A DNA stretch of 60,023 bases, counting the filler, from Hausera hauseri (taxonomy: Eukaryota): the NCBI GenBank assembly GCA_046269625.1. It is 11 parts of 11 records of this genome, joined end to end, with 100 filler letters (N's around TTAATTAATTAA, not from the genome) between each part and the next. Parts side by side here need not be neighbours in the genome. Positions count along the whole stretch, not along the records: positions 18,397 to 24,209 come from JBJURY010184861.1; 10 more parts are not named here. One strand, 5' to 3'. Below the pieces are notes generated by a model. The model made no database searches. It worked only from the letters and a program-made list of their open reading frames with translations, and was not told the origin of the DNA. Positions within the stretch are counted from its first letter, which is position 1. Every line of letters starts with the position of its first letter. Both the position numbers and the translations under genes were made by a program. Below are positions 3,001-38,625 of the stretch, piece by piece.

Positions 3001-3272
3001 ATTTCTAAGTATTAATACCAAATTTGTTATGGTAGTAGCAAATAGACGACCACGCGGGCGAGGGCGATCGTCTTTGTCGTTAATTAAATACATTAGGGGA
3101 AGCTGCCCTAGAAAAATCGCGTCGAGGCAGCGTTAACTCATTTAATTTCTTATTTATGTTGTTAATTGTCTTTTGTAAGATTTCATTTTCCGTGCGTAAT
3201 TGCGCAATTTGTTGCTGCAGCATTGCATTTTCTTGTTGTTGGTCTTTTGTTAATGATGTAGAGATAGATGGT
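1..3272 (-). mobile_element. Decayed Ty3/Gypsy LTR retrotransposon, CsRn1-like (gag 3' part, protease, RT, RNase H, integrase)
   Basis: Fragmented ORFs in Gypsy order: CHCC knuckles at 2896-3040, protease FLIDTGAAISLLP, RT (SPWSSPLHVVPKK, FACIDLHKAYHQIPV, PFGLFEYL), RNase H (TTDASTTAAGAVL, TDHK) and integrase zinc domain (HSLHHPG...). Many frameshifts. Confidence 0.95.
2429..2698 (-). pseudogene. pol: Retropepsin-like aspartic protease of Gypsy pol
   Basis: FLIDTGA catalytic motif and PILDSDFL (ILG-x-DFL-like) motif. Confidence 0.9.
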
Positions 3273-3820
3273 GCTGTGTGAGTGCAGAGAGCTGGTTGAC
3301 CCCACTAAAGTTCCCACTGAGGTCCAACATGTTTCCACAGGCATCAGTTGGCCTGTTATCATTTCAGCCAGGAGTTCAGATACTGATGGAAAGGCACCCG
3401 AGTCATTAAAAGCCCTGCTCCATACTGCTCCACCATCCAGCTCTGCTGAATCAATCATTCGTGCTATGGGAGATGTGCTGTCAAAGATGGACAAGGGATC
3501 AGGGGAAAACAGTGGTTACCGCCGACTTCGAGTGTTCTCTGGCACCTTACCTACACCGGCAGGGGAAGAAGTGTTGGAGCATTGGCTGGAGCAAGCTCAC
3601 CTGATGGTCGAAGAGAGCGACTGCTCCAACAAAGAAAAACGAAGTTGCATAATGGAATGTCTTAGAGGACCTGCTCTTGCTATCATAAAGGCAATACGAA
3701 CAGCTGACGCAGATGTTTCCCCTTCTAAGTGCCTGGATGCTATTGAGAGTGCTTTTGACACAGCAGAATCAGGTGAAGACCTGTACTTTAAGTTTTGACT
3801 ACTGCAACAGGAGAAAGACG
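3268..3820 (+). pseudogene. gag: PNMA (paraneoplastic Ma)-type Gypsy gag fragment, opposite strand to the surrounding element
   Basis: YRRLRVFSG...GEE-x2-EHWLEQAHLMV...MECLRGPAL...CLDAIESAF...ESGEDLYFKF, then a stop and LLQQEKDE. This is a typical PNMA/Gypsy capsid pattern. Confidence 0.85.
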
Positions 3821-3958
3821 AAATACAGAATGGCGAACTCACAGACTTCGTTTTCTTCTATATCTTTCAAATCGCCTGCATCGCCATCTGTTGTTGACAA
3901 TTGTAACTAATTTCGCAAGTTTGTCTGCCTGCAAATTTACTGTTGTCCCAAGCATATT

Positions 3959-4058
3959 NNNNNNNNNNNNNNNNNNNNNNNNNNNNNNNNNNNNNNNNNN
4001 NNTTAATTAATTAANNNNNNNNNNNNNNNNNNNNNNNNNNNNNNNNNNNNNNNNNNNN
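3959..4058. other. Artificial contig spacer (44N-TTAATTAATTAA-44N)
   Basis: Identical spacers also at 8008-8107, 12829-12928, 18297-18396, 24210-24309, 34155-34254, 38626-38725, 43328-43427, 48900-48999 and 53353-53452. A separate 10-N scaffold gap lies at 41573-41582. Adjacency across spacers has no biological meaning. Confidence 0.99.
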
Positions 4059-5030
4059 TGGTGCCTTTGCTAGGACTTGTCGTGTGTCCTAACGGTGAAG
4101 TCAATTTTTTGTAGTGGGTGAGTTTGGCCCACTGTGTTGTGTGAATTTAGTAGTGTTGGTTTTATTGTGTGTTGCAGTTACAGCCAGGTAGGCATTTGTG
4201 TGCCTTTGTGCCAAATTTTGAGTGATAGATGCAAACGATGTTGCTTGTATTGAAATCAGGGGAGTAAAATTTACAACCGATGCAGCATTTTTGAGCATTG
4301 TTACCAAATTTGCTATGATAATAGCAAATAGATGACCGCGCGAGCGACGGCGACCGTCTTTGACGTTGATTAAATACATTAGGGGACGCAGCCCTGGAAA
4401 ACCCCCGTCGAGGCAGCGTTAATTCATTTAATTTTTCGTTTATGTTGTTAATTATCTTCTGTAACTTTTAATTTTCCGTGCGCAATTGCGCAATTTGTTG
4501 CTGCAGCATTGCATTTTGTTGTTGTTGGTCTGTTGTTAATGCTGTAGAGACAGTTGGTATTGTTTTTGAGTGCAGTACTTCATATGCCTTGTCTGCCAAT
4601 TCGCCTAGCTTGTCCAGAGCCGTGGAGTCTTCGACCACGGTAAGCAAAGCTCTTATTTGAAGGAGCAATGCATTTAAAAAATAGCGACGAATAAGTTTTA
4701 GACTATTCTCAGATGTTACGCAAAGGGTGTTAAGGTGAGACAAGGATATGCGTAAGAGTTCAGAAGGCTTCTGAAAGCCCATGGCGTTATCGTCGAAAAA
4801 CCTTTAAATGATGTAGTCGATGGACGGCTCAGTAAGCTTAAGAACGGCATTATAAAGTTGAGTATATGGATCTGTGTGATGAAGGATATCGATGATATTA
4901 GTAATTTTAGTTTTGATGGAAGCTGGTAAGTGGAAAAAAAAGCTGTTTGCTTTGGAAAAAAAAGTCGACGACGTTTTGTGACTGGAGCCAGAATTGGTGC
5001 AGTTTTAGCCAAGTTTAGTAGAGTTTTGGC
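4059..5030 (-). pseudogene. gag: gag of a second CsRn1-like Gypsy copy
   Basis: QKPSELLR...FLNAL..QIRALL...LDKLGELADK, with tandem CHCC knuckles at 4180-4326. Nucleotide sequence aligns with 2770-3272. Confidence 0.85.
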
Positions 5031-5399
5031 TGTCGAAAAAGTATTTGGTGCAGGGTGAATGAGTGAGGAGAATGTGTTGTGTCTAGGTGCTTGAAGCGCT
5101 TTGTTTGGTTAAGTGAATGACAGGGATCTGTGGTTTGGTGAGTTTGTCTGTGGTATCAATTGTGGGTGATGAATCCATGCCAGCACGGATACGGAAATGA
5201 ATGTGAAGGTAGACAAGTTTTAGCAGGTTGGAGGGCTCCAGCGAAAGGCACTATCGATCCATTGTGTGTTATGTAGAAGTCAGAGGAGTGGAGTAAGGTA
5301 GAGATGAAGTTGTGAATGGCCGCGGCGTGTAGGTGCAATGCTGTGCATGTATGAATATATTTGTTATTTAATTAAAGAAAGATGGAGTAGTGAGAAGTG

Positions 5400-5517
5400 A
5401 TACGTCCGGGGACGTGTTGTGGGGCGGCAGCGAAAGGTGTCGTTCGACCCAATGGTGCAGGTTGGGCGGCCGGGACCTCAGCCTCGCCGCGGCGGGTTTT
5501 AAATTTCAGGGTAAACA
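5400..5517 (-). repeat. Probable short LTR (5418-5517) and degenerate tRNA-Trp-like PBS (5400-5417) upstream of gag
   Basis: The minus strand reads TGT...CCGCCCCACA, resembling the LTR ends at 6368 and 34847. It is followed by ACACGTCCCCGGACGTAT, a weak match to the Trp PBS TGGTGACCCCGACGTGAT. Confidence 0.45.
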
Positions 5518-6367
5518 AACTCCCCCTCCAAGGTCCTTTCCTTCTTCTCCCAGTGGACCCAATGAATTTCTTTTCGGATTTTGATCGATAGTCACAGTAT
5601 TGGAGAAAAATAAGGTCATTGATTATGTCAAAAGGATAAATAGACTCTATGGAACAATAGCTGTTTTCCAAATCTTTATTATTTCTGTAGAGCCAATTGC
5701 TATAAATTTCATTGTTTACCGTAGATTCAATTATTGAAGGTTGCAATACATTATACAACAAACCTTTTTGAGCGGTTTTATCATTTTTACTTGGCACCGA
5801 TTCAATTCATTTCGAGATTTCGGTGGTGTGAACATATTTGCAGTCTGAAAAGCGTCATAGCCATAGAAATTTGAGAGATTGTTGTTTCCCGAACAAAACT
5901 GTGGTGGTTCTTGATGTGGGAATCCAATTTCATGATCTCTGAATTAATTGGCCTCGATTTGTTGTTGACCCATCATAATAATACTATTTGGATGAGGATT
6001 TTCGTCATTTAATACAGATGATGGTGGTGCACCTTGGTGCTGCTGCTGCTGGATTTGCATCTGGGCATTAACATTTGGTGCTGCTAAATGCTGATAGTTT
6101 ATTTGCTGTACATTGAGTTGTGCATCGACGAACGTATTGTGTACCTAAGGAAATGGATATTTTTATGTTATACATTCAAATTTGTCTGACAAATGACAGC
6201 TGGTCCATGAAATTGAACGGTAATATTCTTTACCAACAACGCGGAATTGTTCGGAAATTGCTGGGTTGTCGAACTGCAGAACGAGATATCAAAATAGTAA
6301 ACATTGAGATAATTCAAAAATATGGTCACCAACGTTTGAATAAAAGATATCGGCGGTTTATAGAACC

Positions 6368-8007
6368 TGCGAGGTGGGAGATCGGGACCGACTATGGGCA
6401 CGATGCGTCGGCAACGGAGGCCTGGCCGTGCCCAACCAAATGGGTCAAAGGGCACCGGCGGCCATGGGCACCGCATCATCCCCCTGGCAAAGTAAAAACT
6501 ACAAAGGGTAAAAGAGATAGAAAGAAAAACCACAAAAAGAAAAAGTGTCTGTGTCAGCTGGTCTTAGTGTAAATAAGACGTTGGGTACCTTCTACTGATT
6601 TTTCCTGCTATACTTGCTGAATATGATTGCGTGTTTTGTCTTTTTGCGGTGTGCTTGCTTGCAGAGTTTGAAGTTAGGGAAGAAAATTATCAGGTTTTGT
6701 TGTAAGTGTTGTGTCGTGCAAAGATGAGTCAGAATAAAGAGAAGGAGAAGGTGAACGAAGAAGAGAGTTTGTTAAAGACGAAGGAATGATTAAAGGTGTG
6801 GTGGCAGATAAAGGAAAAGAGAAAGAAGTTGAAGTAGAAGCCGGAATGAAATTGTGTGAAAGAGTGGAAGTGGAAGATTAAGCAGCGGTAGTGGTAGAGA
6901 AAGGAAGAAAGATGGGGATAGAAGTAAATAAAAGAGGAAGTCTCGAAGTGGAAGTAAAAGGGGTAGAAGACGATGTGTGAGGAGAAAGGGAGGAAGAAAG
7001 CGCCGAAGATGAGGAAGGTGTGGAAAGAGAAGGAGAGAGAGAGAGAGAGAAAAACTGCGGAAGTACAAGGCGAAAGAGAGCAAGAAGATGAAGAAGACAA
7101 AGGAAAGTAGTTGGGAGGTGTCATGCAAGAGGTAGGAATGATGAAAGGTGTAAATAGAGAGATTGGTGAAGTCAAAACGGTGTTTGATGGAGGAGGTATT
7201 GCAAGAGGAGAAAGCAGGTTGTTACCAGGGAAAGGAGGAGGTGTTGGAAAGCTTGAAGGTGCAAAATCGGGTGGAGAGAAAGAGGCTAAATTGTGAGAAA
7301 TGGAAGTGGAAGTTTTGGGAGAAAACGTAGGGGAAAATGGATTAAGACATTGAGCAGAAATGGAAGGTGAATTGTTGGATTGCTGCGCGTCGTATAAAGA
7401 TGTAGGTGGAGAAGTGACATCGATGAAAGACGTATCGTCGATGAAGAAAGCCGGCTTAGCGTTGTTGATGTGAACTGTTACTTCTTTGTCGTCTTTGAGA
7501 ATTATGATGTTGTGGGAGTATAAGCGAATTACTTTGTAAGGGCCGAGATACTGAAGTTGAAAACTACACGGCGTTTGATTCTTTAGTCAAACAAACTTGG
7601 CAGTATATAAATCGTCGGGTATGTAAGGTTTATTTCCGTGTAACAATCTGCAAAATGAGTCTTTTCTGTTCTCAACAAAGTGTCTCTGTGCCGCTTGTAT
7701 GGTTTTGTCTGTAGGAGTATTGTCCAGCTCATTCAGCTAGAATATAATATGATGGAAGTGTCAAATAATGCTCCTGCAGGTAAACAGCCTGTAGAAGTAG
7801 ATGGTGTGTTTCGCCAGCCAAGAAGAACGTACGGAAGGAGTGTAGTTCAACTGCCATTGGACTTAGCAAGGATTTTAAGAGACGTTTTTATCGTTCGGTG
7901 AAAGCGTTCAAGAAGACCATTCGATGGGGGTGATATGGTGACATGTGAATGTGGTTAATTCCCAATCGATTGACAAGAGCTTTAAACAGGTTGGATTCGA
8001 ACTGTGG
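6368..8007 (-). mobile_element. 3' part of a CsRn1-like Gypsy copy (integrase C-terminus, low-complexity tail, PPT, 3' LTR)
   Basis: Collinear with 34847-36500. Contains the integrase GPY motif, a purine-rich tail on the plus strand, PPT AGGGGGATGA and LTR TGCGG...TCGCA at 6368-6475. Confidence 0.9.
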
Positions 8008-12928: not shown

Positions 12929-13705
12929 TAGTAACTGGACTGATCGTTGCACGTTATATCCGGCGAACATACACCCGTACAAACAATGATCCAACTCTGA
13001 GCGGACTTGTCTACTATCTTTTCCTCTTATGAGCTGTTCTCTTTTTAAGCCGGTTACTTCTTCATATGATTCTTGGAGATGTTTCCGGAGGTTTATGATT
13101 GTAGAGTATATTTCAATCCCATCCCTTTCTTTAATAGATACTTCAATGGGTATTCCATATCCATCATCTCCTCTGCCGCAATTTATCGCGATGATTCTTA
13201 TATTACAACCGTCTTGGATTAGCCTAGATGACTGACGATGTTTATCCTTTTCTACCTCAGTTGGAATTTGTTCAAATTCTATGGCTGGCAAGCGTAGGTT
13301 CCAATCTTCTCTGTAGATTTCTTTCGTTTATTTTAAATGTGCTGAACCGATATTGATGCCCTTCATTGGAGTTCCAGTTTTGGTTTTCCATTCTATAATA
13401 TATTTCTCCGTCAGCTAGGTGGATGTATATATCCTGAATTTTGGCTGGCCGATTTCGGTTTAATTCCTTTAGGGAGTATGCTTTGTCTTGATGATTTTCG
13501 CGCATTGCGTAAAGGTAAATTGTACAATTCTCTGTAATGCCTTTTAGATCATTGGGGATCTCGCTAATTTTTGGGATTTCGATATAGGTTTTTGCTTGTA
13601 AGACTTCGGTTATCCGTCTATACATAGACTTCGATTTCGGAATAAATACTGTGGCTTGTTCCCGCAGATATTCGTAAATGCTAATTCGGCTATCCGTACT
13701 TACTA
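12929..13705 (-). pseudogene. Unknown N-terminal domain plus REX4/ISG20-like DEDDh exonuclease fold (cut by contig end)
   Basis: IIAINCG...EVSI...G.EIYSTII......YEEVTGLKREQL...QVRSEL...L.G.MFAGYNV follows the REX4 pattern VALDCE...RVSIV...G...YD..V.P...YRT.VSGI...L...VQ..V..LL.GRILVGH. The N-terminal domain is homologous to 21917-22350. Confidence 0.7.
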
Positions 13706-13805
13706 TTCTAAAAAATAAAAAATAAGGGTCAATCCTATAACAAAGTATTGTTCTAAATCTGAACCAATTTTTTGTTAGATGGTGGAATAACCCAACCTGT
13801 AATTG

Positions 13806-15215
13806 TCAGGTAATTCCATTATTGATTTCGTTCTGTGGTACCATAATCCTTAATTCCCTCTCGGTGATTTTAATACGCTTATTACAACAGTTTTTGGTAA
13901 TCAATTGACAAAACGCAATAAAAGTTGTGACAGCAAACGTTGACGTTCCAATAATCGATATTGGGTTGTCCATTTAGTTAGGTCTTTCGTTTTAGCGGTA
14001 GTCGTAGTTTCGTCTTCCATTTCATCGTTAGTTAGTGGCTTCGTTAAGACAATTTTGTTTATAGTTCGTACCGTAAACGTTCTACTTTGTTTATTCTCTG
14101 CACCTATTTCTATTACGTAGTCTGTTTTGGGTTTTAAGTAGGTGCAATTAATTCGATGGCTTCCTTTAGCCAGTGTCACTTTTTGATTATTGTGTAACGT
14201 TCGGCAGCTCATTTTTACGCCGCAATTCATTGCTTCCTCCACAACACATTTTATTTCACGTTGTTGTGTCCAATATTTTACAGAAATTATTTCTAGATTC
14301 TTCTGAGGTAATCCACTTGTTTGAAAGACTCTGTTGGAAGTTGAAGTAGTCGTATTCGTTTTTGTAGTCGTAATTCTACTTGTTGCCATTTTGGGCGGAA
14401 TTCCCGAAACTAGATTTTCCAATTGATAACATCCTAGGTAAATGCTCGGCTGGTTTGGTCGAATTTCATATAAATCTAACCGAATTCAATATTTATATCT
14501 CTGGGGTAACTTACAACACCTATTCGGCCTTTCGACGTCAATTTGACAGTATTATTGATTGTGAGCCGCCTTGTTCTCCCTTATGAATTGAACCGTAATT
14601 ACTCGTCCTTTAATTAACCGTCCCTTTGTGTTTATTTGGATGCAGTTGTCCTTTGGGTTTTCCGCTATACTAGCCATATTTTCTTCTAGCATCCGTTTTA
14701 ACGGTTTGACGGACTGGAGCAGGTCTTCTAGCTCTATATTAAGATAGTATCCATAAGTTCGTGGTATAACTATATGTTAATTTAATTTTATTTCTGCGTG
14801 TACATTATTACAGTTCGGCAAATATGAACGATAACTGAGAGCGTAAGAATGTTTGTATTCTACGTTGTAGCAAATTGTATCATCTGACTCGAATTTACAA
14901 TCAAATTCGACTTGGCTAGATAGGTCATAAAATAATATTTGGATTTGCCCCTCATATGGTCCTGGTAACCTAAACCCGGCACATGGGGCCTCTGGTGAAA
15001 AATGATCTAATTTTATTGCTCGTAAAAATTTCTCGTCTTTTTGTTCTGATTTGTGTTCGGGTGCTTCCTCCCTTGGCAGTGAACGATTTAATCCGCTTTT
15101 CATGATCCCATATATATCGCTCATCGAAGTTTCATCGACCCACCATTAGGCGTTAGACTTAGGAGTTAGGACAGCAATCAATGATAAGGCTACTTTTATC
15201 TGCGCGTAAGATACT
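13806..15215 (-). pseudogene. Type I membrane protein: signal peptide, three FN3-like Cys modules, Thr-rich stalks, TM
   Basis: YAQIKVALSLIAVLTPKSNA lies in frame after the integrase GPY. The FN3 signature is LKPKTDYVIEIGAEN...FTVRT. After a frameshift near 13975 the frame reads PISIIGTSTFAVTTFIAFCQLI-TKNCCNKRIK (TM plus basic/Cys tail). Confidence 0.7.
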
Positions 15216-15299
15216 GGTCTAGTGATGACTGACAAAGTCCTTGTTTCTTGCTGTCTTAGACTGTAGTGTTTACCTGGTCTTATATCTGTTTTAACTACT

Positions 15300-17900
15300 C
15301 TTTGAATCGATACTACTTCTTCTTTGCCGTTTTTATTAACATAGACTGTGGTTGGCGTTGTGCGGACGATTTCATATGGCCCTCTTCCAGTACGGGTTAA
15401 TTTCAATGATGTACCTTTCTTCGCGACCGGATAATGTATATAAACCCAGTTCCCTTTTTCCAGATCATGAAGCTTAGCCTTTTTATCATATTGTTTTTTA
15501 AATTGTTCCTGGTATTCAAGTGATAATATTTTTGCAACTTCCTAACACTTTTGCAATCTTGCCTGTAAGACTTCGGCAAGGTTTTGCTCTAGAGCCTCGA
15601 GACTCTTCGTACGGCACTTTACCTAGATCTGTAGGTAAGATTGATTCTCGTCCATACATAAAAAAGAATGGTCTAAATCCTGTTGCTGGATGTGGGGTCG
15701 TATTGATTGCGAACTGTGTCCCTTCTAAGAATTTGTCCCAACCCTTTTGGTCCCTAGTCACTACTGTTGATAGTATACGAATGACTGTTGCGTTCATTCG
15801 TTCGACCATTCCATTACATTGGGGTAGTACGCGGTAGTGGTTAAACGTTTTATTTTGAATATCTTGGTAATCTGTTTGAATAATTCACTTGTGAAGTTCC
15901 TTCCTCTATCCGTTAAAATTTAGTACGGCGGTCCTTATCTTCAGATGATTTTCCTTATCACTGCCTCGGCTAAAGTTTTTGCCTTTTGGTCTAATAGTGC
16001 CACTAGTTCGACAAAGTGCGTTAATCGATCCACGCATGTTAGAATATATCTGTTATTTTTATGAGTTTTAGGTAAGGATCCCACTATATTCATAGACATA
16101 GCTTGCTTCGGCCTGTCTGGTACGCTCATGGGCTTTAATTCGGCTACGTAGACTTTCGTTTTCTTTTGCTTTGTTGCACAAATTTGGCAAGCACTTATTT
16201 AATTTTTCACATCGATATAAATGCTTGGCCAATAGTATTTATTTAGTATCCTTTCGCAGGTCTTTTCCCAAGACATGTGTCCAGCTAAATATGAATCATG
16301 TTCGGCCATAAGTACTTCAATGCGTAATCCTTTTGGAATAACTATTAATCTTCTTCCCTTTCGCTCGTAATATAGGATGTTATCTTGGTTCGATGCGTGA
16401 TATTTATGTCCGTACTTCTGTAGATGCTTTTTCAGTTGTCGTCCTTTGGGCATTTTGCCGTTTTGTGCAAACTCAATAATTTGCTGAATAACCTTATCTT
16501 TAGCTTGCTCTGCAGTGATCCTGATCGTTTTATCCAGGATTAGGGTTCTTTGACGTTCAGTTATTTGTTCGAGTTACGTTTTCTCCGCTGAGTAATCCGA
16601 CTTGTTTTTGTCTTTAACCTTGATAATGCGTTGGCGTCGACGTGCTTATTACCTGGTTTGTATTGGAATTCAATGTTATATCGTCAGATTTCCTCGATCC
16701 AGCGGTTTAATTTACATGTTGGGTTACTAGCTCGTCCTCTCAATGTCGTAGTCGCTTTGTGGTCGGTCACTATTATACTCATTTGTTCATAGACATAGAC
16801 ATTAAAGTGTCATAGTGCTTCCTTTACGGCTAATGTTTATAATCTGGTAACCGAGTAATTCTTTTCTGCTTTCTTTAACGAGCGTCCTCCATAGGATATT
16901 GGGTGTTCTACTTCTTTATCTCCTCGTTTCTGAGCTAATTCATATCCTATACCTTCTTTACTTGCATCTGTTTTATGATGCTATCATTACGTCGTAGGTT
17001 CAAATCAGGGTATCTTAGAACTGGTTCGCCTGTCAAAATTTTCTTCATTTCATCGAATGCTTTTTGCTTCACTTCCGTCCATCTCCACTTAGTCCCTTTT
17101 TTGAGTAGGCGATATCGTGGTGCGTTAATTTTCGAATTGGCCGGTACGTAAGTGGCATAATACCCACATAGGTCTAACCAGTGTCTCAGCTCTTTTTGAT
17201 TCTGCGGTTCCATACAATCGGATATTTTATTTAGCAGGAATTTATCCGGTTTTGATCCTCCATCTCAGACTATGTGTCCGAGGTACAATACTGCGTTCTG
17301 TGCCCATTTACATTTCTTTGGATTTAGTTTCAACCCTGCTTGTTCCAGTCACATGAGTGTATTTTCAATGTCCCTTAAGTGTTCTTCTTCTGTTTTTGAT
17401 GCTATCATTACGTCGTCCAGATACGCGAAAACATGATCAAGTCTCATGAAAATCTTATTCATCATTCTAGTAAAGATAGCTGGTCCTGTGGTGATGCCGA
17501 AAGGCATAACATTAAATTCGTATACGCCATCGTGTGTTTTAAACGCTGTCTGATATCGATCTTCTTCTTCGATTTCCACTTGCCAGTATCCCGACTGTAA
17601 GTCAAGAGTGGTAAACCATTTCGTTCCCGATAGTCTGTCTAAAGTTTTCTTTACCGACGGTGAGGGAAACCCGTCTTTCATCATAAGCGTGTTTAATGCC
17701 CTATAATCTATACAAAATCGATGTTTCGTGGTTCCTTGATAAGTAGCTTGGTACCATGATAAGTAGCTTGGTCGAATTATATCGGCCTTTAACATTCGCT
17801 CTGCCTCTTTAGTTATTTCGGGTCTCAATGAATGGAGAGGTGTGTACCATTTGGGCATTTTCTGCTCTTCTGGATCGATTTCGTCATTAGAGCCGGGTTT
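15300..17900 (-). pseudogene. pol: Gypsy pol (RT-RNase H-integrase), frameshifted
   Basis: YLDD; HDSYLAGH...YYWPSI; VERMNATV...W...FAINTTPHPATGFRPFFFMYGRE; GPYEI. Confidence 0.95.
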
Positions 17901-18411
17901 TTTTCTTATTGGAATTGTTAATCTCAGGGCTTTTGATCTACCTATGTCTTCTTTATTTTGTGCAATTATTGAACAGTATTTACATAGTAATTCGTAGAAC
18001 TTGCAATACGCCTCAGGAGGAAATTTGGTTTAGACGTGAGGTGGAAATTCTGCACATTTGTATGGTTTTTCCTCTGTTGTTACTGCCGATACTCTGCAAG
18101 TGTGACCTAAAGTAGTGTTAGCGTGCAATCTTACGGGGGTTGGTGCATTGTTCACTAATCTGATATGTATGCGTTCCGTCGCTACTCAAGATAAGATATT
18201 GCTAAACATGAGGTTTGGGTCGATATTCTCTTGAGGTTCAAAATATACTGGCAGATCTTCGTCTTGACGAATCTGTGCGAAAATTATCATTTCGGTNNNN
18301 NNNNNNNNNNNNNNNNNNNNNNNNNNNNNNNNNNNNNNNNTTAATTAATTAANNNNNNNNNNNNNNNNNNNNNNNNNNNNNNNNNNNNNNNNNNNNCCAG
18401 TCCCAAAAACA

Positions 18412-20330
18412 GTGAAAGGAGTTCGTAAATTTCTCGGTCTTACAGGATATTATAGAAAATTTGTTAAAAATTATCAACAAATAGCTTCTCCTCTACACTC
18501 ATTACTACAAGAAAACTCCAAACTTGTGTGGACGCAGGAATGTCAAAAAGCATACCAACAACTAAAAGATAGTCTGTTAGCCCCACCAATATTGGCTTAT
18601 CCAAATATGTCTAAACCATATTTTTTAGCCACAGACGCAAGTAAAGTTGGAATAGGAGTTGTTTTATCTCAGAAGGATGATCAAGGACAAGAACATCCTA
18701 TATCATTTGGAGGACGGAAACTGAGAAAACACGAGAAAAATTATTCTACAATTGAGAGAGAATTACTCGCAATCGTATACGCCTTAGAACAGTACGGACA
18801 GTATCTGTCGGAAACTAAACCAATTATCATCTATACTGACCATAAGCCATTACAATGGCTAAAGAACCATAAGAATCCAAATAGTCGTTTGATGAAATGG
18901 GCAATGCTACTCCAACCTTACGATTTAAAGTTCGAATATAAAACTGGTAAGGCCAATGCAAATGCAGACTATATGTCTAGAATACCTGAAGATATTGATC
19001 AAGAGGAAGAAATAACGGATAAACCAAGTGTAATAGCAGCTATTTGGAGTATTACAGAATACGAAAAATCGTTGCAGCAGAAACAACGGAGTGATGAACA
19101 AATAAAACAAATTATGGAATATCTCCAGAAGAAAATTACGCCAAAAGATACTGATCTCCATACTCACTTGATAAAGTTTGCTGAAAATTATCAAATGAAA
19201 GATGGTATACTATATTATAATTACAAAGGAAAACTGGTCGTTGTCGTCCCCCAAGAAGATGTAAAATTATTGTTAACACAATACCATGATGGCATGTTGG
19301 GAGGACATCAGTCGAAGAAGCGAACACTAGGCAGACTGAGGAGAAAATATTACTGGCATAAAATGCCTAAAGATGTAGAAGAATGGTGCAGAAGTTGCCC
19401 CATTTGTGCAACACGGAAGAATACCGGCTCAAAAATTAAGGTCCCTTTGAAACCATTAGAATGTCCACCAGCTCCTATGGAGTTCTCAGCAATGGACATC
19501 TTAGGACCACTGCCAATGACGATAAATGGAAATAAGTATATGTTGGTTTTTGTTGACTTATTTTCCAGATGGCCAGTAGTAGTTCCGATACCAGACCAAA
19601 AAGCACAGACTATTGCACAAGCATTTGTTGAAGAGATTGTATTTAATTATGGAGCACCTACTAAACTATTGACGGACCAAGCTCCAAATTTCACTGGAGA
19701 AGTAATGGCTGAGATATCGAAAATATTTCAAATATTACAATTAAAAACTACCCCATATCATCTACAAACCGATGGAGCGGTCGAGCGATTTAATGAAGTT
19801 CTGATTAACATGTTGGCGACAATAGTTGGGGGACGACAGGATGATTGGGATGAATGTATTGGACCCTGTTTGTTCGCCATTGGGAACGCGATTTATCCTG
19901 CAACCCGGGAAACTCCATTTTATTTAATGTGTCTTGGAGATGCTCACATGCCCGTTGATTTGGATTTCAGGATATCAGCTTCACACTTGGAGGATGTAAA
20001 ATATCAAGAATTACTGGAGGAAAAATTGGGTTATGTATGGAGTTTGGCTTCGCAGAATATGAAAAGATGTCGGAAAGAATGCAAAGATGGATGTGATGAG
20101 GGAGCCAAAAGTCATAGCTTTAAACCTGGGGATAAAATTGTGTTGCATGCACCTTTGTGTAGGAAGGGAAGGACTCCGAAATTGGATAGACCATGTGGGG
20201 GGTCCATATATGATTCAAAAGGTGGATGAAACAAGTGTATATTTAAACAGGAATAAAAGAAACGAGAAGGATCCTATAAAGATTCATGTGAATCGATGTA
20301 GACTAGCACCGTTGGAATCACAAATAAGAA
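18412..20330 (+). CDS. pol: Gypsy Pol: RT connection, RNase H, integrase (HHCC, DDE, GPY)
   Basis: FLGLTGYYRKFV, ATDAS..GIGVVL, YSTIERELLA, YTDHKPL, HDGMLGGH...CRSCPIC, MDILGPLP, TDQAPNF, DGAVERFN. A 1-nt frameshift in the G-run near 20197-20202 precedes GPY. Confidence 0.96.
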
Positions 20331-21637
20331 ATGGAGATCCAGGTTTGTCATTGGTGGTGGCATTTGTGATGTTGAGTCTGATGACTTGTATATCGGCCCG
20401 GGAATTGGAGCCGATATATCGTGGGGTATAGGTCGGAAAATACCCCTGCATACGAGTATTTGGAAGTCGAAATTTGACTATCAACGATTATGTCTATATG
20501 CATATATCGAGGGTATCCACATCACAGAGGGTGATCGCTGGATCTTGTGATTTGTATTCGAAACGTTCTAGTCACATCTGCTGCGGTTTGTCATGTTGGA
20601 TGTCATATGGAGTTCAATATGCTCTTACTGGAATAATAGACGAGAAATGGCGCACATCTTGTTGCTCATTTCCGGGTGTGATATACTGCTTTGGTAAGCC
20701 AGATTTCCTTGTAACATTCTGCACAAAGATTGTGAAAAATGGACCATGTGTAACGTCTGAGCCAGATTCCCCGGTGGCCAGGCATCGAACAATTAAATAT
20801 GCAATGTTTAATAAGACCAATACGATGGAGTGTAGACCTTTTTATCGGGATCCTCATCTATGTTGCCCCATAGCCTTTGATAGGGAGTATATGATATGGT
20901 GTTGGACAAAATTGGGAGCGAATGGTGACTGGAGATAATCGGATGGGTTGATGGCTCCAGAAGTGGTGGTGAAATCACCAAGGGTAATAATAACCTTAAA
21001 AAGGAGAGTGACTACTCCGCTGACACTGCCCACTGTAGCGGCTAGTCCAACTATAGAAGCTGAGAAGAATATCAGGGAATTGGATATAATTGTCCAACCA
21101 ACAACTCACTCACTGGTTATTGCAGTGTCCAATTTAAAAACCACAAACGTGGAATTTGAATGTTGCTTTTACCATGGGAGAATGAGTGAGGGTGTCATAA
21201 CTCCAGAGGAGCCCACATCGGCTTGTGTGTTCCTGGGGAACGATACGAATTATAAGATAGCTGTAGCCGAACTTGATAAAGAAGGACAAATTTTGCAGAC
21301 AGTTTGTCGTATAGGAAAGACGTTAAAGCAAGTGGTTTTAACGACAACAAAAATTATAGAAATAACAAATGTGCAAAATCATGATGACAACGAGAATAAA
21401 TATTTTTGGATACTCGTTGTACTGTGTATCTTCTTGGTGTTATTAGCCATACCTTTACCTTTGATATTTTATTTCTTGAAAATGAGACAACGACGGCGTG
21501 GAATCGGGGAAATATTGAATCAATTAAGGATGTTAAGAGAGGACTCCCAAGAATCGTTAGCGGACATAGGCGCGCCTTGTTCACAAGAACAACGGCGAGT
21601 TGAAAAAAGTGGGCAAGCCGGGGAGCTTGCCGATTAG
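20330..21637 (+). pseudogene. Type I membrane protein: signal peptide, three FN3-like Cys modules, Thr-rich stalks, TM, basic cytoplasmic tail
   Basis: ORFs 20087-20431, 20474-20938 and 20948-21637 share one frame. Signal-like GLSLVVAFVMLSLMTCISA, FN3-like FLGNDTNYKIAVAE, and TM YFWILVVLCIFLVLLAIPLPLIFYFL followed by KMRQRRR. Confidence 0.8.
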
Positions 21638-21916
21638 AAGCAGCTAGTACGGCCGCTAGAATGTGGACTGACTGGGGAATTTGCCAGTCAAGAGTGGCAG
21701 TCCCTACCGCTTGGAGGTATAACTGTGTGTCTATGCACGGGAATTCGGGACCAGGCCGCAAAATTCCTAGCGACCTCTACTTGTGGACAATCAAAATGTA
21801 AAGATATTATTATATGTAGAAAGTTTTGGCCGCTGTTGATATTGATTTTTTTGGTCGGCGAAGGGTCCGAACAGGTCCAGTGACCGAGCATTTTTTGACG
21901 CAGTATTGTTGCCAGT

Positions 21917-23041
21917 TTGTTGGCGTCCAGCAGGAATTGCGTCTGCTATAAAGGGGCCCATATGATGCCAAATCACCTAAAGGGACAAACTGTGGATCGG
22001 AGAGGTGGCCTTATAATTAAGTTACAAGCATGTTCTACTATGTTGTCTGATTTGATCGATCTCACAAGAGGAGTTATAGCCATCTGCGTTTCAGTGTCGA
22101 ATGGAACTATTCAGTTGAGAGGCGGGGTTCTCTCTAATGGAATCACTGATGCAATTGACATTCCGTCCTCAACCACGATTGGATTGGATGAGAGGTTCTT
22201 CGAAAATGTGGAGGTAACTATCAGGATTGTAAATAAAATTCATCCGGTCTTATATATCGAGGTTGTCAGGCAGGAGAATGTTTTCCATAATGAGTCAAGG
22301 CAACTCAATTGCCCAATGTCAATTCCTAGTGATTCTTTACTGGGGAGGGGTGCATCGTTTGTAAGATCGACTCAAATACGGAAGGAGGATATGGTAATTG
22401 TGACTACTGGTTCCGCGTATGTTATGCAGCCAGTTCGCAAAATGGAGGTGACACTGATGGAACTAGCCATTATGAATTTGGATGGTGAAGTTATTTTCGA
22501 TAGAATATTGTGCCCACGTGACAGAATGGATAATTGTAGTAGTCATGTGGCCGGCTTAAGAGAGCCGGACATAATGGGACGGACAGATCTCTTGCAAACT
22601 TGCTCTCTGATTGAAACTCATCTTATCGGAGAAATTATCGTTGGAATGAATGTATTTTGTACTCTTAATTGCATTCTTGGATGCAGTCATCATTTTGTCT
22701 TGGGCATGGGAGATCTACTTTATCATGAGAGGGCCAACCCGAGACAGGAGTTTGATTCCTAATACATTTTGACTGCATTCAATAATGGTGCTTGCCCTCG
22801 GGGAACAAAGGATGGAGCGGGGTCAATGCTGGATATATATAGTTCAATTCCGAAATATAAAGATGAAAACCTAATGGATAATATATCATTGACAGGTACC
22901 CATGTGACTGATTTGGAAGTCAAAGAAAACCCTGGGAGGACAGGGGATTTCGCGAGTGGCAAACGGCTTTTTCAGATGTCTTTGATAGGAAGTGGCGAAA
23001 TGGAATTGTCATTGACGAAAGGACCCAAGAAAATGAAATAA
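21917..23041 (+). pseudogene. Unknown N-terminal domain plus REX4/ISG20-like DEDDh exonuclease fold
   Basis: ELAIMNLDGEVIFDRILCP...DNCSSHVAGLRE.DI...L.GEIIVGMNV...MGDL (IRDT-like)...TKDGAGSMLDIY (SVEDARA.M.LY-like). One in-frame stop at 22760-22762. Confidence 0.78.
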
Positions 23042-23844
23042 GGGAGATCTGACTTGGCAGATTCCTCAACTCAAGTTACAATCGATTTGACAAGGAACAT
23101 AAGAAAGTCAATTTCGTCTAAAGAGACAATTGCACTAAAAAGAGGGATTGAAGTGGGGGATCAGTGGCTGGAAATGGATGCAGTGCGGAGACGGCTTCAT
23201 CTGGGGAGGGAGGTGTCGAACATGTGAGTCGGGTGTCAATTGACTGACTGACCGGATTGATTGATCTTTTATATTGTTTTGACCAAAGTTTAATTTTCAT
23301 CTAATTGTTTTGTTGTTTTGGAAATCGAGTGTGAATTTTTGTGATTTTTGTCATGTGAAAGAGGGGTATACAAACCTCAACATTTTGTCACAATACACAA
23401 TATTCTCTTCATGTCTACTTATGCTCTTCGTGATTGTAAGTGTGTTTTTTTATTCATTTTCATTTTATTTTGGTTATCATTAATTAGATAATATTAAAGG
23501 ATTAGTGATTTTATTCTTTTGTTGTACGTACAAGAAATTAATCTTTGGTAGTAGGTGTAAGTAAATATAAAATCAAGACCCTTTTTCTTTTAGCGTCCAT
23601 AAAGTCGCTGATTTTAAATTCATTGCAAGTAAGGGAGAGACCGCCAGTATTGCCTCCTGGCGTCGTACTCACACATTAAGATTAATTAAGAACTATAAAT
23701 AAGTCATATCAATCCACAGATTGCTACTCCAGAATTTAAGTAAAGATAAGTTTGAGGTGCATTGACCCAGACTTGTATTTGATTGATTTTAGGCTTGGTG
23801 AGTAAAATCTCCAAGCTAACTTATAACAACCTTAAACTTATCAT

Positions 23845-23861
23845 TGGTGCCCCGAGTGAGG
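23845..23861 (+). promoter_or_regulatory. Primer-binding site, elongator tRNA-Met
   Basis: TGGTGCCCCGAGTGAGG lies one nt after the LTR end CA. It matches the complement of the animal elongator tRNA-Met 3' end (TGGTGCCCCGTGTGAGG) with one mismatch. Confidence 0.85.
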
Positions 23862-23964
23862 AGGCACACTGGCGTCGTATTCTTTACGTAAGAGACACGC
23901 TATTAATATAAATTCGTGCACTGATTCGGTACGGAGTAGCCCCGAATTAGACGAAAATCTTTAG

Positions 23965-24209
23965 TTGGAAAATCAGAATCCCGAAATGTCCTCAGAACTT
24001 GGAACCAGTTTAGGTAGTAATCTAAACAGTACGATGGTATTACCCATGGAAAAATACGAGGCGAAGCCGGACCAAGATTACGCAGAGTTCATTATGCAAT
24101 ACGAAATGTATTCCGAAAGTTATGGATGGACGGATGAGCATAGGATCAAACGGCTCCCTTTACATCTTAAAGGCATAGCACTTAGTGCTTATACCCAAAT
24201 AAAAGAAGA
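23965..24209 (+). CDS. gag: Gypsy gag N-terminus (cut by contig end)
   Basis: KYEAKPDQDYAEFIMQYEMYSESYGWTDEHRIKRLPLHLKGIALSAY is a Ty3-type capsid pattern, about 100 nt downstream of the PBS. Confidence 0.88.
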
Positions 24210-34254: not shown

Positions 34255-34456
34255 TTCTTTACAATTACGTTTTTCATGTAACTGGTACCTTTCTTTACAT
34301 TTATGATAATAGGATCCAATGGTATTTGTACAAAAATGCTCGCAGCAACTATTTTGATATGCGTATTCATCTTCGTTTGTAAAATAATATACTTTGAAAC
34401 CTTTTTTCTGTACGGTTCCGTCCGAGAAGAGTGCGATTTTAACTTCATTTGTATTG
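34255..34456 (-). pseudogene. BMP1/tolloid-like CUB-EGF coding fragment
   Basis: NEVKIALFSDGTVQKKGFKVYYFT-NEDEYAYQNSCCEHFCTNTIGSYYHKCKERYQLHEKRNCKE resembles tolloid F.SD.TV.KKGF...D.DEC...NGGC.H.C.NT.GSY.C.C..G..LH....CKE. Some Cys/Gly residues are lost. Not present in the ORF track. Confidence 0.8.
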
Positions 34457-34846
34457 AAATTTCATTTAGTTATTCCAACAATATTAATTGTAAATTCATG
34501 CGTGGAAAATCGATTGTTTGAGCCGTTGTATATGGTGGTTGCGTTCGAATGGAAAAGTTATGAATGGAATACAATTGCAGATGCTGGACGGAGATGGGAG
34601 CTAAAGACTGTTCTGCTGCACAGTAATTTGCGAGTTTTCGTTTGTTATGTGTCGTGGATAATTTTGAACACTGACAAAATATTCCTAACTTTCTCTAAGA
34701 CGATCTAATTGAAATCTACAAAATTCGACATGATTAAAGCGGTTATTTACAGAGGATTCAAAGATATTTTGTAGACGTTGCAATATATGAAACTACAACT
34801 TCATGAACGTTATTTGTCACTAGAATATGAATTGCTGCAATGAAAT

Positions 34847-37800
34847 TTAGAGGCGGAAGATCGGGGCCGACTATGGACCCAACACGGCGGCAATGGACGC
34901 CCGGCCGTGTCCAACCAAATGGGTCAGAGGGCGCTGGCCGCTGTGGATACCACATTACCCCCACCCCCCGCCCGTGGCAAAGTGAAAACTATAAAGGGTA
35001 AAAAAGAAAGAGAAAAAAACGCAAAAGAAAAAAATATCTGTCAGTCGGTGTTAATGTAGACAAGACATTGGGTGCCTTTTAATGATTTTTCCTGCTATAC
35101 TTGCTGAATATGACTGTGTGTTTTGTTTTTATGTTGTGTATTTGTTTGCAGAGGTTGCAGTTGGGGAAAAAATTGTAGGATTTTGTTTTTAGTGTTGCGT
35201 CGTGCAAAGATGAGTCAGAATAAAGAGAAGGAGGATGTGAAGGAGGAAGAGAGATGGTTGAAGATGAAGGAATGATTAAAGGTGTAGTGGCGGATAAAGG
35301 AAAACAGAGAGAAGTTGGGGTAGAAGTGAAAATTGAATTATGTGAGAGAGTTGAAGTGGAAGATGAAACAGAAGTTGTAGTAGAGAGAGGAAATGGATAG
35401 GAAAAGAGATAAAGAGAGGAGAAAGTTGTGAACCGGAAGTGAAAGGAGTAAAAGATGATGTGTGAGAAGAAAGATGGGAAGAAAGAGCCGAAGATGAGGA
35501 ATGTGTGGAAAAAGAGGGACAGAGAGAGAGAGAGAAAACGGCGAAGTGCAAGGCGAAAGAAAGCGAGAAGATGGAGAAGGCAAGGATGAGTAGTTGGAGG
35601 GTGGTGTGCAAGAGTTTGGAATGATGAAAGGTGTAGATAGAGAGATTGGTAAAGTCGAAATGGTGTTTGATGGAGGAAGTGCTGCAAAAGGAGAAAGCAG
35701 GTTGTTGTGAGGAGATGAAGGAGGTGGTGGAAGGCTTGAAGGTGCAAAATCGGATGGGGAAAAAGATGCTGAACGGTCAGAAAAAACTGAAGTAGAAGTC
35801 TTGGGCGAAAACGTATGAGAAAGTGGATTAAGAAATTGAGCAGAGATGGAAGGTAGATTGTTAGATTGCTGCGCGTCGTGTAAGAATGATGGAGGAAAAG
35901 TGGTTTTGATTGGAGACGTGTCGTCAATGAAGAAGGCCGGTTTAGCATTATAGATGTGAACGGTTATTTCTTTGTCGTCTTTGAGAATGATGATGTTGTG
36001 GGAGTGTAAGCGAATAACTTTGTAAGGGCCGAAATACTGAGGTTGAAAACCACACGGCATCTGATTCTTTAGCCAAACAAACTTGGCAGTGTATAAATCG
36101 TCGGGCATGTAGGGTTTGTTTGCGTGTAACAGTCTGCAAAATGAGTAATTTCTGATCTCAACGAAGTGTCTGCGTGCTGCTTGTATGGTTTCGTCTGTGG
36201 AAGTATTGTCCAGCTCAGTCAGCTCGAATAATGATATGATGTAAGTGCCAAATAATGCTTCTGCAGGTGAACAGCCTGTAGAAGTTTATGGTGTGTTCCG
36301 CCAGCCAAGCAGAACGTACGGAAGGAGTTTGGTCCAACTGCAATTGGACTCAGCAAGAATTTTGAGAGACGTTTTCATTGTTCGGTGAAAGCGTTCGAGA
36401 AGGCCGTTCGATTGGGGATGATATGGTGACGTGTGAATGTGGTTAATTCCCAATCGATTGACAGGAGCTTTAAACAGGTTGGATTCGAACTGTAAACCTT
36501 GGTCCGAGATGATGTGGCGAGGTGATCCAAACCTGCTGATCCAACTGCGGTTTCTGTGTTAGTGCTCCGAAGAGGGACGGTTTCTGGCCATCGCGAGGCA
36601 CGGTCCATCATTATGAGGATGAACTGATGGCCGTTGTCTATGGGTAATGGGCCTACAATGTCAATGTGGACAGATTCGATACGAGACGTGCAGGAAAAAT
36701 GAAATAATGGTGGCTTTAGGTGCTTAGTAATTTTGTATTTTTGGCATGCCACACACTGCCTAACCCATGCCTGCACGTCAGAGCGCATCGACAGCCATAC
36801 TACTTGGTGTTGTAAGAGGCGAAAAGTGGCCTTGGCACCAGTATGATGCAACGAATGTACGCTGTGGAACGCTTATTTTTGAAGCCACTCAGAAAGAATG
36901 ATTTTGGAATTATTAGGTTTGGAGGTGTCAAAGGCCACACCGTCAATGGTATTGCAAGATTTAAAAAATTTAAGGATGTCAAGAAATGGCTGGTTTTGTT
37001 GAAGCTTGGTTTGATGAAAAATTGTTATAAAATCAATCGAGCTGACCGCTCGGGACAAAAAGTCAGCTACTAAATTGTCCACTCAGTTTAAATATTTAAA
37101 GTGAAAATTAAATGTTGACAAATACGATATTCGCCTCTCCTGACGTGGCGAAGGTGATTTCGTGGTGAGAATTTGAAGCAAGGGCTTGTGGTCCGTTTGT
37201 ATGGTAAAAGTTCGTGCAGTTAGGATATGTTTGAAGTGTTTTTCGGCAAGGACCATTGCAAGCAATTCTCGTTCAAAGGTGGAATATCTTTGCTCTTGTT
37301 CCGTGAATTTTCGAGAGAAGAACTCTGGTGACTCATGAAATCCATTTTAACTTGATGGAGGATTGCACCCGCAGCTGTTGTGGATGCGTCGGTGGTTAAG
37401 AAAAGTTCTGCATATAAGTCTGGATAAGCCAGAATTTCCACAGTTTTCAAATTGTCTTTGAGACGATCGAAAGCATTGACTAAATTGGCGGTCCACTGAA
37501 TAGGCTGTTTCTTCTTGCCAGAGCTTAGTGCTGTAAATGGAGCGGTTAAAGTGAAACAGTGCGGAACGTACTTATGAATAAAGTGCAAGGTTCCGAGGAA
37601 AAAACGCATCTCTGTTGATGTACGTGGCAGTTGTATGGTTTTGAGCTGAGTGATGCGGTTCGGCTGAGGTGAATGTCCTAAGGAGCTAATAACATGACCT
37701 AGGAAATTGACCTTTTGTTGAAAAAAAAAAGCATTTAGAGAAATTGATTTGCAAGTTGTTTTGGTGTAAGCGCTGGAAGATTAGACGTAAGTGTTTGGAG

Positions 37801-38625
37801 TGCTGCTTCGAGGAAGAGGATGCAATTAAGATGTCATCAATATAGGGATAGGCGAAGTCTAATCCTGAAAGAACTGTATCGACATGCCTTTGGAAGGTCT
37901 GGGAAGCGCTACGGAGTCCAAAAGGCATAAAGAGGTATTCGAAAAGGCCGAAATGTGTAATGACAGCCGTTTTCGGAATGTCTGCGGTGGTATGCTTTAT
38001 ACAGATCAATGCAGGAAAAGACGCTTTCACCATGGAGCCTGTGAAGGATATCGTTGACTAATAGTAGAGGGTAGGCATCCATTGTTGTTATGGTGTTGAG
38101 TTGGCGGTAATCACCGCATGGGCGAAAGGTGCTATATTTTTTGGAACCACATGCAGTGGTGAAGACCAGAGGGATTTGGATCTTCTGATTATGCCTGATT
38201 TTTCAAGGTCGAGAAACTCAGCCTTCACTGCCTGTCTGCGTCGAGGTGATAGCGGGCGGACCTTTTGCCGGATTGGTCGTTGATGTGCAATTACGATGTG
38301 ATGAAAGGTGGATTGAGGTGGTACGAATGATTTGTCCTTTTGCAACAGACGCGTGAAGGAGGACAAAATGTATTGCTGTAAATCAGAAGGCAACGATGAC
38401 AAATTATCCGATGGTGTCGATGCATCGTGACTGGATGAAGTTGGGGTATGAGTTGTAGACAAGGTGTTGCGACTAGGTGGTATTTGGTGCAGGATGTTTG
38501 TGTTGAAATTGGTGTTGGCAGCTGTGCTATTAGTAATTGGTGCCACGCAGTTGGCAATATCGCATTTGTCACAGTAATAAAAATTTCTATATAATAAATA
38601 ATTATGAAAATAATTCAAATCAGTA
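34847..38625 (-). mobile_element. Decayed CsRn1-like Gypsy copy (RT, RNase H, integrase, low-complexity tail, PPT, 3' LTR)
   Basis: YIDD, TTDAS, VHIDIVGPLP and FGPYKV motifs. Collinear with 1-2330 and 6368-8007. PPT GGGGGGTGGGGG precedes the LTR at 34847-34954. Confidence 0.95.

Follow-up and report, generated by a model that had tools for sequence, protein, structure and literature searches.

A predicted FN3-type membrane protein behind the integrase of a Ty3/gypsy lineage, with a gB-like fusogen upstream of Pol in relatives that extend into the 5′ half

When a signal peptide, an ectodomain, and a transmembrane (TM) segment are encoded behind the integrase of a Ty3/gypsy element, is the resulting protein the envelope (Env) of that element? 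The usual picture of env-bearing retrotransposons is that of a single surface protein accounting for both binding and fusion. The question was raised by two elements found in a 60,023-nucleotide stretch of the Hausera hauseri assembly GCA_046269625.1 (hereafter, the window), which is composed of 11 contigs with N-linkers between them, and in which element 1 (18397-24209, plus strand) and element 2 (12929-18296, minus strand) occupy different contigs. Both elements have decayed and belong to a single Ty3/gypsy lineage, and the protein in question is the second, fast-evolving, and swappable membrane protein of an element with a Gag-Env-Pol order. It is very probably an accessory glycoprotein, distinct from the fusogen and produced at least partly as a segment of the polyprotein. 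The complete mechanistic chain, in which a type I attachment glycoprotein with a predicted fibronectin type III (FN3) fold would be freed by signal peptidase and act beside a gB-like fusogen, is moderately probable as judged from sequence. The features on which this reading depends are as follows, the first six in element 1 and the remaining five in element 2.

18400-20229, plus strand: Pol, with RNase H and the integrase core (Pfam RT_RNaseH E 2e-39, Integrase_H2C2 E 4e-20, rve E 6e-13)
20204-20212, plus strand: integrase C-terminal GPY motif, read from the translation, in the frame of the membrane protein
20342-20398, plus strand: internal signal-peptide-like segment, hydropathy up to 2.47, with a similar segment in relatives
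20399-21403, plus strand: ectodomain with three Cys-containing repeats and a Thr-rich linker, motifs at 20579, 20861, and 21224
21059-21331, plus strand: third repeat, a predicted FN3 domain (relatives-only profile, AlphaFold2, Foldseek)
21404-21637, plus strand: TM segment (about 21404-21478) and cytoplasmic tail of about 50 amino acids (aa), hydropathy up to 3.4, stop at 21635-21637
15300-18296, minus strand: Pol, with reverse transcriptase (RT), RNase H (RH), and integrase (IN) up to GPY, carrying many stops and frameshifts (Pfam RVT_1 E 9e-28)
15382-15374, minus strand: GPY motif, read from the translation
15149-15208, minus strand: signal-like segment of weaker hydropathy (1.6), directly followed by a TAA at 15148-15146
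13900-15145, minus strand: ectodomain with three repeats and a Thr-rich linker, motifs at 14872, 14518, and 14146
about 13961-13900, minus strand: frameshifted TM-like segment

A first-pass annotation of the window had placed a hydrophobic segment 40-60 aa after the GPY motif, in the same frame and with no intervening stop, and this was borne out by a distance of 44 aa in element 1, in one frame with zero stops between, and of 56 aa in element 2. The accompanying statement that the membrane protein is in frame with the integrase stood for the relatives described below and only in part for element 1, where the integrase-core frame, which stops at 20227-20229, is parted by a frameshift of one base near 20197 from the frame shared by GPY and the signal segment. 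Copies were compared by placing contigs from two public runs, X1 and X2, on both elements at 80% likeness, and the frameshift was absent from one other X1 contig. The only 15-residue windows of element 1 with hydropathy above 1.8 were those of the signal segment and the TM segment; the 5′ half of this element is missing, its contig ending there. In element 2, a Met was not found just before the signal segment.

The organization of intact elements was deduced from relatives, of which those numbered P are proteins recovered by a search with element 1 Pol and those numbered L are metagenome loci. The Pol search was restricted to proteins of 1,046-2,985 aa and gave 271 matches, among which 120 were listed; 22 of these 120 had more than 250 aa beyond the matched region. 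A signal-like and a TM-like segment were present in 12 of the 22 (the top 13 matches minus P0010), 11 by threshold and P0008 by eye, while the other 10 each had no more than one hydrophobic peak. Statements on signal and TM segments of relatives come from hydropathy peaks and reading by eye, and those on furin sites from reading by eye. The metagenome scan returned 51 loci, and the seven with 44-48% integrase identity that were examined all had an open tail, so that the 12 proteins and seven loci, with each of two identical-core pairs counted once, make 17 distinct relatives. In all 17, the frame was open from the integrase through the signal-like segment and the ectodomain to the TM segment, with stop-free spacers of about 70 to about 700 aa between integrase and signal; the stop that would have separated the two proteins in intact copies was therefore seen in none. 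Intact relatives encode a single open reading frame (ORF), 3,703 aa at its longest, comprising Gag, a gB-like Env, one or more proteases, RT, RNase H, integrase, and then the membrane-protein tail, in which a signal-like segment, FN3 repeats, a stalk, a TM segment, and a cytoplasmic tail follow one another, with a separate DEDDh exonuclease-family ORF next. In L009, one 3,703-aa ORF runs from Gag to the post-integrase TM segment.

The relatives and element 1 formed one clade with a Shimodaira-Hasegawa-like approximate likelihood ratio test (SH-aLRT) support of 100 in a quick 40-row tree in which 20 rows had been selected as outgroups and element 2 was left out. The eight best RT matches of element 2, of 125, all belonged to the tail-bearing clade. 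The Ty3/gypsy order of Pol domains was found throughout, with RH then IN in element 1, RT before IN in element 2, and protease (PR)-RT-RH-IN in the relatives. Two gypsy polyproteins, P0013 and P0052, are labelled in a source as proteins of bacterial metagenome-assembled genomes, probably owing to animal contamination of the bins.

The ectodomain had been described as a repeating Cys pattern like that of Cys-containing FN3 domains, and profile, AlphaFold2, and Foldseek results all pointed to FN3. Each element has three occurrences of a motif of the C-xx-L/I/V-x5-Y type, and 14 ectodomains together have 21, whereas 1000 shuffles yielded 1.1 on average and never more than 5, the motif having been fixed after inspection of the sequences. 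Ahead of the L-x5-Y motif, the repeats have one Cys that is nearly invariant and another one, and these two conserved residues may form a disulfide. The ectodomains of elements 1 and 2 could not be aligned directly (19% over 133 aa) and were connected via the profile of the relatives only. Built from relatives alone, this profile detected the third repeat of element 1 (E 3e-5) and that of element 2 (14302-14078, minus strand; E 2e-7), the only repeat detected in each, and had no other match in the window at E 0.5. The unit profile matched 12 of 127 proteins, all within the clade and five of them outside the training set. Single members fell below the Pfam fn3 cut-off, with a best E of 0.01 (0.025 for the element 2 ectodomain), while a 17-member unit alignment had a fibronectin match at E 1.6e-6, and FN3 proteins made up most of its 38 PDB matches. 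The AlphaFold2 model of the third repeat of element 1 presented seven strands and a predicted local distance difference test (pLDDT) score of 82.6. The PDB matches listed by Foldseek for this model were FN3 domains and monobodies, with a TM-score of about 0.6-0.7 and identities of 10-19%, whereas in the viral structure library BFVD it matched mainly phage FN3 domains. The seven-strand beta-sandwich and the L-x5-Y corner motif of the FN3 superfamily were both found, and the repeat is thus predicted to have the FN3 fold; the structural comparison proposed in the first-pass annotation gave FN3 domains as its top matches.

The narrower tie to cytokine receptors in that annotation found no support as stated. 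In class I cytokine receptors, the FN3 domain next to the membrane carries a WSXWS motif, and no such motif was seen by eye in the translations or in the unit alignment. The tie is unsupported because many FN3 families match (fibronectin, Dscam, IL-2 receptor beta, sevenless, and LAR alike) and no WSXWS was seen. Broader searches with the window ectodomain gave 0 matches among 3,999 candidates in a word-indexed search and 103 pattern matches in the metagenome scan, 0 of which were confirmed; nothing close to it was found among viral contigs. An ectodomain alignment that was poorly in register (A2) had 0 matches among 7,997. Of two Atlas searches, the earlier reached a score of 0.92 at low recognition and the later at most 0.82, which is a lead only. 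A phmmer search of 1.84 billion representatives returned a lone leucine-rich repeat protein, rejected as spurious by its Pfam content.

If the post-integrase protein is built from FN3 repeats, where does the fusogen lie? Pfam PF24664, the gB-like fusion glycoprotein of Monjiviricetes, matched P0002, P0007, P0011, P0013, L006, and L009 with E values of 1e-83 to 1e-97. The gB-like gene was found between gag and pol, as in errantiviruses, and preceded the Pol protease in the same frame in 6/6 relatives with an ORF extending into the 5′ half, the ORFs of the other 11 starting downstream of this position. No gB match was found in the window, where both contigs end before the env position; from their clade membership, the window elements themselves presumably carried the gene. 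The post-integrase protein matched no fusion-protein Pfam family. Class I fusion proteins combine a furin site, a fusion peptide behind it, and heptad repeats, a combination that was not found in it: no R-x-K/R-R site was seen by eye in either window ectodomain, and element 1 had no internal hydrophobic window above 1.8, in agreement with the earlier observation of no furin site plus fusion peptide. Since a gB-like class III fusogen lies upstream in the 6/6 relatives that extend to this region, the FN3 protein is not the Env, and the claim that it is not a fusogen was upheld, no known viral fusion class having been matched by Pfam or by the model of a single repeat.

Downstream of the polyprotein, one or two ORFs of 443-707 aa, belonging to a single family, were found in 7/7 loci, and a matching exonuclease-family ORF was present in both window elements:

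21926-23228, plus strand, element 1: DEDDh exonuclease-family ORF, broken, matched by the profile of the relatives at 21926-22666 (E 3e-18)
12929-13661, minus strand, element 2: exonuclease-family ORF, broken and cut by the contig end (profile E 1e-7 to 2e-6)

The Pfam RNase_T cut-off was passed by the ORFs of L003, L004, and L006, and that of L004 matched SDN1 (E 8e-14), ISG20L2, and ISG20, the latter being the sole PDB match of the element 1 ORF (E 1.2). The first acidic D-x-E motif was kept in 5/9 ORFs of relatives, while element 1 lacks it and element 2 has it in altered form. In L003 (6861-9920) and L004 (7268-10371), two exonuclease-family ORFs occur in tandem, one with and one without this motif.

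The membrane-protein tail diverged faster than its surroundings in the one pair compared, L003 and L004, whose amino-acid identity was 0.36 in the tail, 0.87 in RH-IN, and 52% in the exonuclease. Identity between the two tails was 0.66 at codon position 2 versus 0.45 at position 3, with no stops, and the FN3 tail is, by this codon pattern, apparently kept by selection yet fast-evolving. The number of repeats varied from one to three per relative, and L006 and P0006 had an additional FN3-TM unit ahead of the Pol protease. Extra aspartic protease domains (P0001, P0002, P0003, P0011, and P0012) and, in several relatives, ankyrin repeats were inserted between integrase and signal with the frame intact. 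As for other cargo, two to four retropepsin-like domains were seen in P0001, P0002, P0003, P0009, P0011, P0012, and L006 (1200-1500 aa), some of them after the integrase or Env. L007 has a RING-finger ORF (2684-4135), the L009 ORF a weak ubiquitin-like match at aa 848-903 (E 0.018), and P0001 and P0003 ankyrin repeats, a cargo reminiscent of the planarian element Burro. In the subclade of P0002/L005, P0007, and P0008, the substitute ectodomain has paired Cys, and a PPxY-like motif was read by eye in the tails of P0002, P0007, and P0008.

The manner in which one polyprotein could deliver these products may be outlined as follows. The ribosome would thread the polyprotein through the membrane of the endoplasmic reticulum at alternating signal and stop-transfer segments, leaving Gag and PR-RT-RH-IN in the cytosol and the Env and FN3 domains in the lumen. 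In L006, whose ORF is cut at the contig start, the hydrophobic segments are ordered, as read by eye, so that Pol would stay cytosolic. Signal peptidase would free the FN3 protein, and Pol would be membrane-tethered until trimmed by a protease of the element. Such tethering would carry Pol into budding particles despite the position of Env between Gag and Pol, and the FN3 protein would accompany Env to the surface of the particle or cell, where it would bind a host surface molecule. A lineage that keeps, swaps, and duplicates a host-like second surface protein, and adds an exonuclease, looks like a complex virus. It could accordingly be asked whether these are enveloped complex metaviruses with a two-part entry, comprising a class III fusogen and a receptor-binding glycoprotein made from a captured host FN3 domain, together with tethered Pol and a counter-defence DEDDh exonuclease acting on host small RNAs or double-stranded RNA sensing; taken jointly, these proposals are tentative, and clearly less likely than the accessory-glycoprotein reading. 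The lineage offers a way into target-cell choice by invertebrate metaviruses and into the packaging of Pol when Env lies between Gag and Pol.

Other explanations have to be considered for both the stops and the protein itself. The in-frame stops that the first-pass annotation had reported soon after the signal segment are present in both copies, TAG at 20429-20431 in element 1, where a second stop at 20936-20938 also breaks the ectodomain, and TAA at 15146-15148 in element 2. They had been read as either decay or a conserved read-through point, and a programmed read-through site limiting the amount of membrane protein would fit their location no more than 11 codons after the signal segment in both copies. 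However, for the site at 20429, X1 (10 contigs) showed a difference between the other copies and the window in 2441.7 of a depth of 2451.1, and X2 (4 contigs) in 71.5 of 71.5; for 15148, the figures were 1102.5 of 1168.8 (X1, 30 contigs) and 14.1 of 14.1 (X2, 5 contigs). X1 includes contigs identical to the window copy over 19940-23243 and could itself be where the window comes from. The offsets of the two stops also differ, both copies have further stops and frameshifts, and a post-signal stop was absent from every relative examined. Read-through is all but refuted because, at either site and in both runs, the window is unlike the other copies over more than 90% of the depth, and its probability is close to nil; the two post-signal stops are not fixed but copy-specific, they represent decay, and both window copies are dead. 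Hardly more credible is that the FN3-TM protein is itself the fusogen of these elements. It occupies the usual env position, the gB gene was not seen on the two window contigs, and in Atlas virus the fusogen holds the same place in one polyprotein, according to the parts of its description covered here (PMC9094657); against this stand the predicted FN3 fold, for which no fusion protein of class I, II, or III was matched, the internal hydrophobic peptide that was not found in element 1, and the real fusogen lying upstream in every relative that reaches the region, the window contigs ending short of it.

Two further explanations accept the protein as non-fusogenic and differ from the accessory attachment glycoprotein in its function or its synthesis. 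With the same polyprotein and processing, it could act at the producer cell as a captured mimic of a receptor, being a host-ligand decoy or a blocker of superinfection or immune recognition, which is rather unlikely but the strongest of the alternatives. Its receptor-like layout, its matches to Dscam, IL-2 receptor beta, sevenless, LAR, and FNDC proteins, its fast divergence and swappable ectodomain, the PPxY-like tail motifs, and the presence of exonuclease, ankyrin, and RING cargo of counter-defence type in the element would all suit a decoy. Nevertheless, no receptor family matches closest, a standalone or cellular homologue was not found in searches limited in length range or sensitivity, and one ORF would yield Env and FN3 protein in equal amounts. 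Less likely still is a main synthesis from a spliced or subgenomic RNA, for which the open frame with Pol would be real but a minor route. This has a precedent in Cer1/CERV (PMC10309623, as far as it was covered), and the downstream exonuclease ORFs require a separate expression route anyway; a Met was seen by eye just before the signal segment in some relatives, but not in element 2, and the absence of an integrase-signal stop in 17/17 relatives, across spacers of such different lengths, argues against it.

Several observations nonetheless weigh against the accessory attachment glycoprotein. The AlphaFold model covers 91 aa, a single repeat, with 17 sequences behind it, and single-sequence folding of the whole ectodomain gave a pLDDT of 34 and no fold. 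P0009, P0011, and P0013 present the motif without a unit-profile match at E 0.05. In the P0002/L005, P0007, and P0008 subclade, FN3 is not required, because an unrelated short Cys-rich ectodomain fills the same slot. The signal segment of element 2 is only moderately hydrophobic, and the summed RH-IN scores of this element do not single out the clade. Attachment is one guess among host-facing roles. Finally, the Cer1 case indicates, in the portion of the source covered, that an ORF numbered inside a single polyprotein can come from a spliced mRNA (PMC10309623).

Parts of this organization have been described in other elements, each reported here from the parts of the source covered. Errantiviruses with GAG-ENV-POL order and an ENV of the gB type of herpes simplex virus (HSV) occur in Nematoda, Bryozoa, and Platyhelminthes and share with the present lineage a Ty3/gypsy Pol and a gB-type class III fusogen between Gag and Pol (PMC13524379); in the main text of that study, the terms 'fibronectin', 'exonuclease', and 'ankyrin' have 0 occurrences, and a second membrane protein, lying behind the integrase, is unmentioned in the parts covered. 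Burro/GYPSM1, a planarian giant gypsy, has env in frame between gag and pol within one huge polyprotein and carries host-like cargo of ankyrin, ubiquitin-like, and RING type (PMC6431247). A Burro-like single ORF with Gag features, PF24664, and Pol was seen in relatives only (L009, P0002, and P0007). However, Burro ORF1 has about 4,900-5,100 aa in elements above 30 kb with BIR, BCL2, and MATH domains, whereas the ORFs of the relatives have 3,426-3,703 aa and those domains were not found in them by Pfam at E 0.05; a post-integrase membrane protein of Burro is unmentioned in the parts covered (PMC6431247). Atlas virus (Belpaoviridae) resembles the present elements in having one Gag-Pol-Env polyprotein, of 2,828 aa, in which Pol is followed in frame by glycoproteins that include a GN-like partner beside the GC fusogen (PMC9094657), but it belongs to BEL/Pao and its post-Pol module is a captured phlebovirus-like class II, in contrast to FN3 with a class III fusogen upstream. 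The bdelloid long terminal repeat (LTR) elements Juno and Vesta carry an exonuclease ORF3 (PMC5408684), which is of the DEDDy/RNase D type and replaces env, whereas here the exonuclease is DEDDh (RNase_T/ISG20/SDN1), sometimes duplicated, and env is also present. Animal receptors and adhesion proteins that carry FN3 and cross the membrane once (Dscam, LAR, sevenless, IL-2 receptor beta, and FNDC5/9) have the same succession of signal, FN3, stalk, TM, and short tail, but differ in the 10-18% identity of the structural matches and in the extra Cys pair of the present repeats, and no donor family was found among them.

Thus, the Gag-Env-Pol order and exonuclease cargo have each been published separately, and for the FN3 module no report was found: neither an FN3 membrane protein after the integrase nor a DEDDh exonuclease with gypsy and envelope appeared in a literature search lying outside Repbase, subscription journals, and some supplements. 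The new combination is that of a gypsy lineage of Gag-Env-Pol order to which an exonuclease and a second, host-like surface protein have been added, and it implies that an ORF with signal, ectodomain, and TM behind the integrase is not to be called env from its position.

The 3′ end of element 1 contains the following remaining features:

23203-23213, plus strand: polypurine tract, read from the sequence
23214-23843, plus strand: likely LTR of about 630 bp, TG...CA, between the purine tract and a primer-binding-like site that begins with TGG, with no second copy on the contig
23845-24209, plus strand: primer-binding-like site, then a Gag start of the same lineage (24037-24201, 44% identity to L009 Gag, E 5e-10)

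The TGG-starting site was read within 23203-23862, and the best matches of the Gag start were L009, P0007, and P0002, all gB-bearing. The segment 23203-24209 reflects either a tandem array or assembly through an LTR; an LTR pair was found neither on the element 1 contig nor in the loci searched (five loci, four listed). Depth over 23203-24209 was about 40,000 versus about 10 for contigs identical to element 1, which makes the wider family a very abundant one, even though depth does not count copies. Over 19750-23200, element 1 had G where other copies had A at 231 places and the reverse at 98 (run X1), often clustered, and its branch in the quick tree was long (1.04). This G-for-A excess could come from adenosine-to-inosine (A-to-I) editing before reverse transcription or from family drift.

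The rest of the window includes long interspersed nuclear element (LINE), DDE, and gypsy fragments, as identified by Pfam, and together with the CUB-EGF-like fragment below they make an animal the likely source; Pfam matches of 15 other ORFs in the window gave no hint of the host. A second, unrelated gypsy family is spread over three contigs (1-8007 and 34255-38625) and has a long Ser/Pro/Thr-rich low-complexity stretch after the integrase. At 34255-34452 (minus strand), a CUB-EGF-like fragment matches C1s/MASP-type proteins without a stop (E 1.5e-5), and at 56454-59138 (minus strand), a LINE ORF is open over 894 aa with endonuclease and RT domains.

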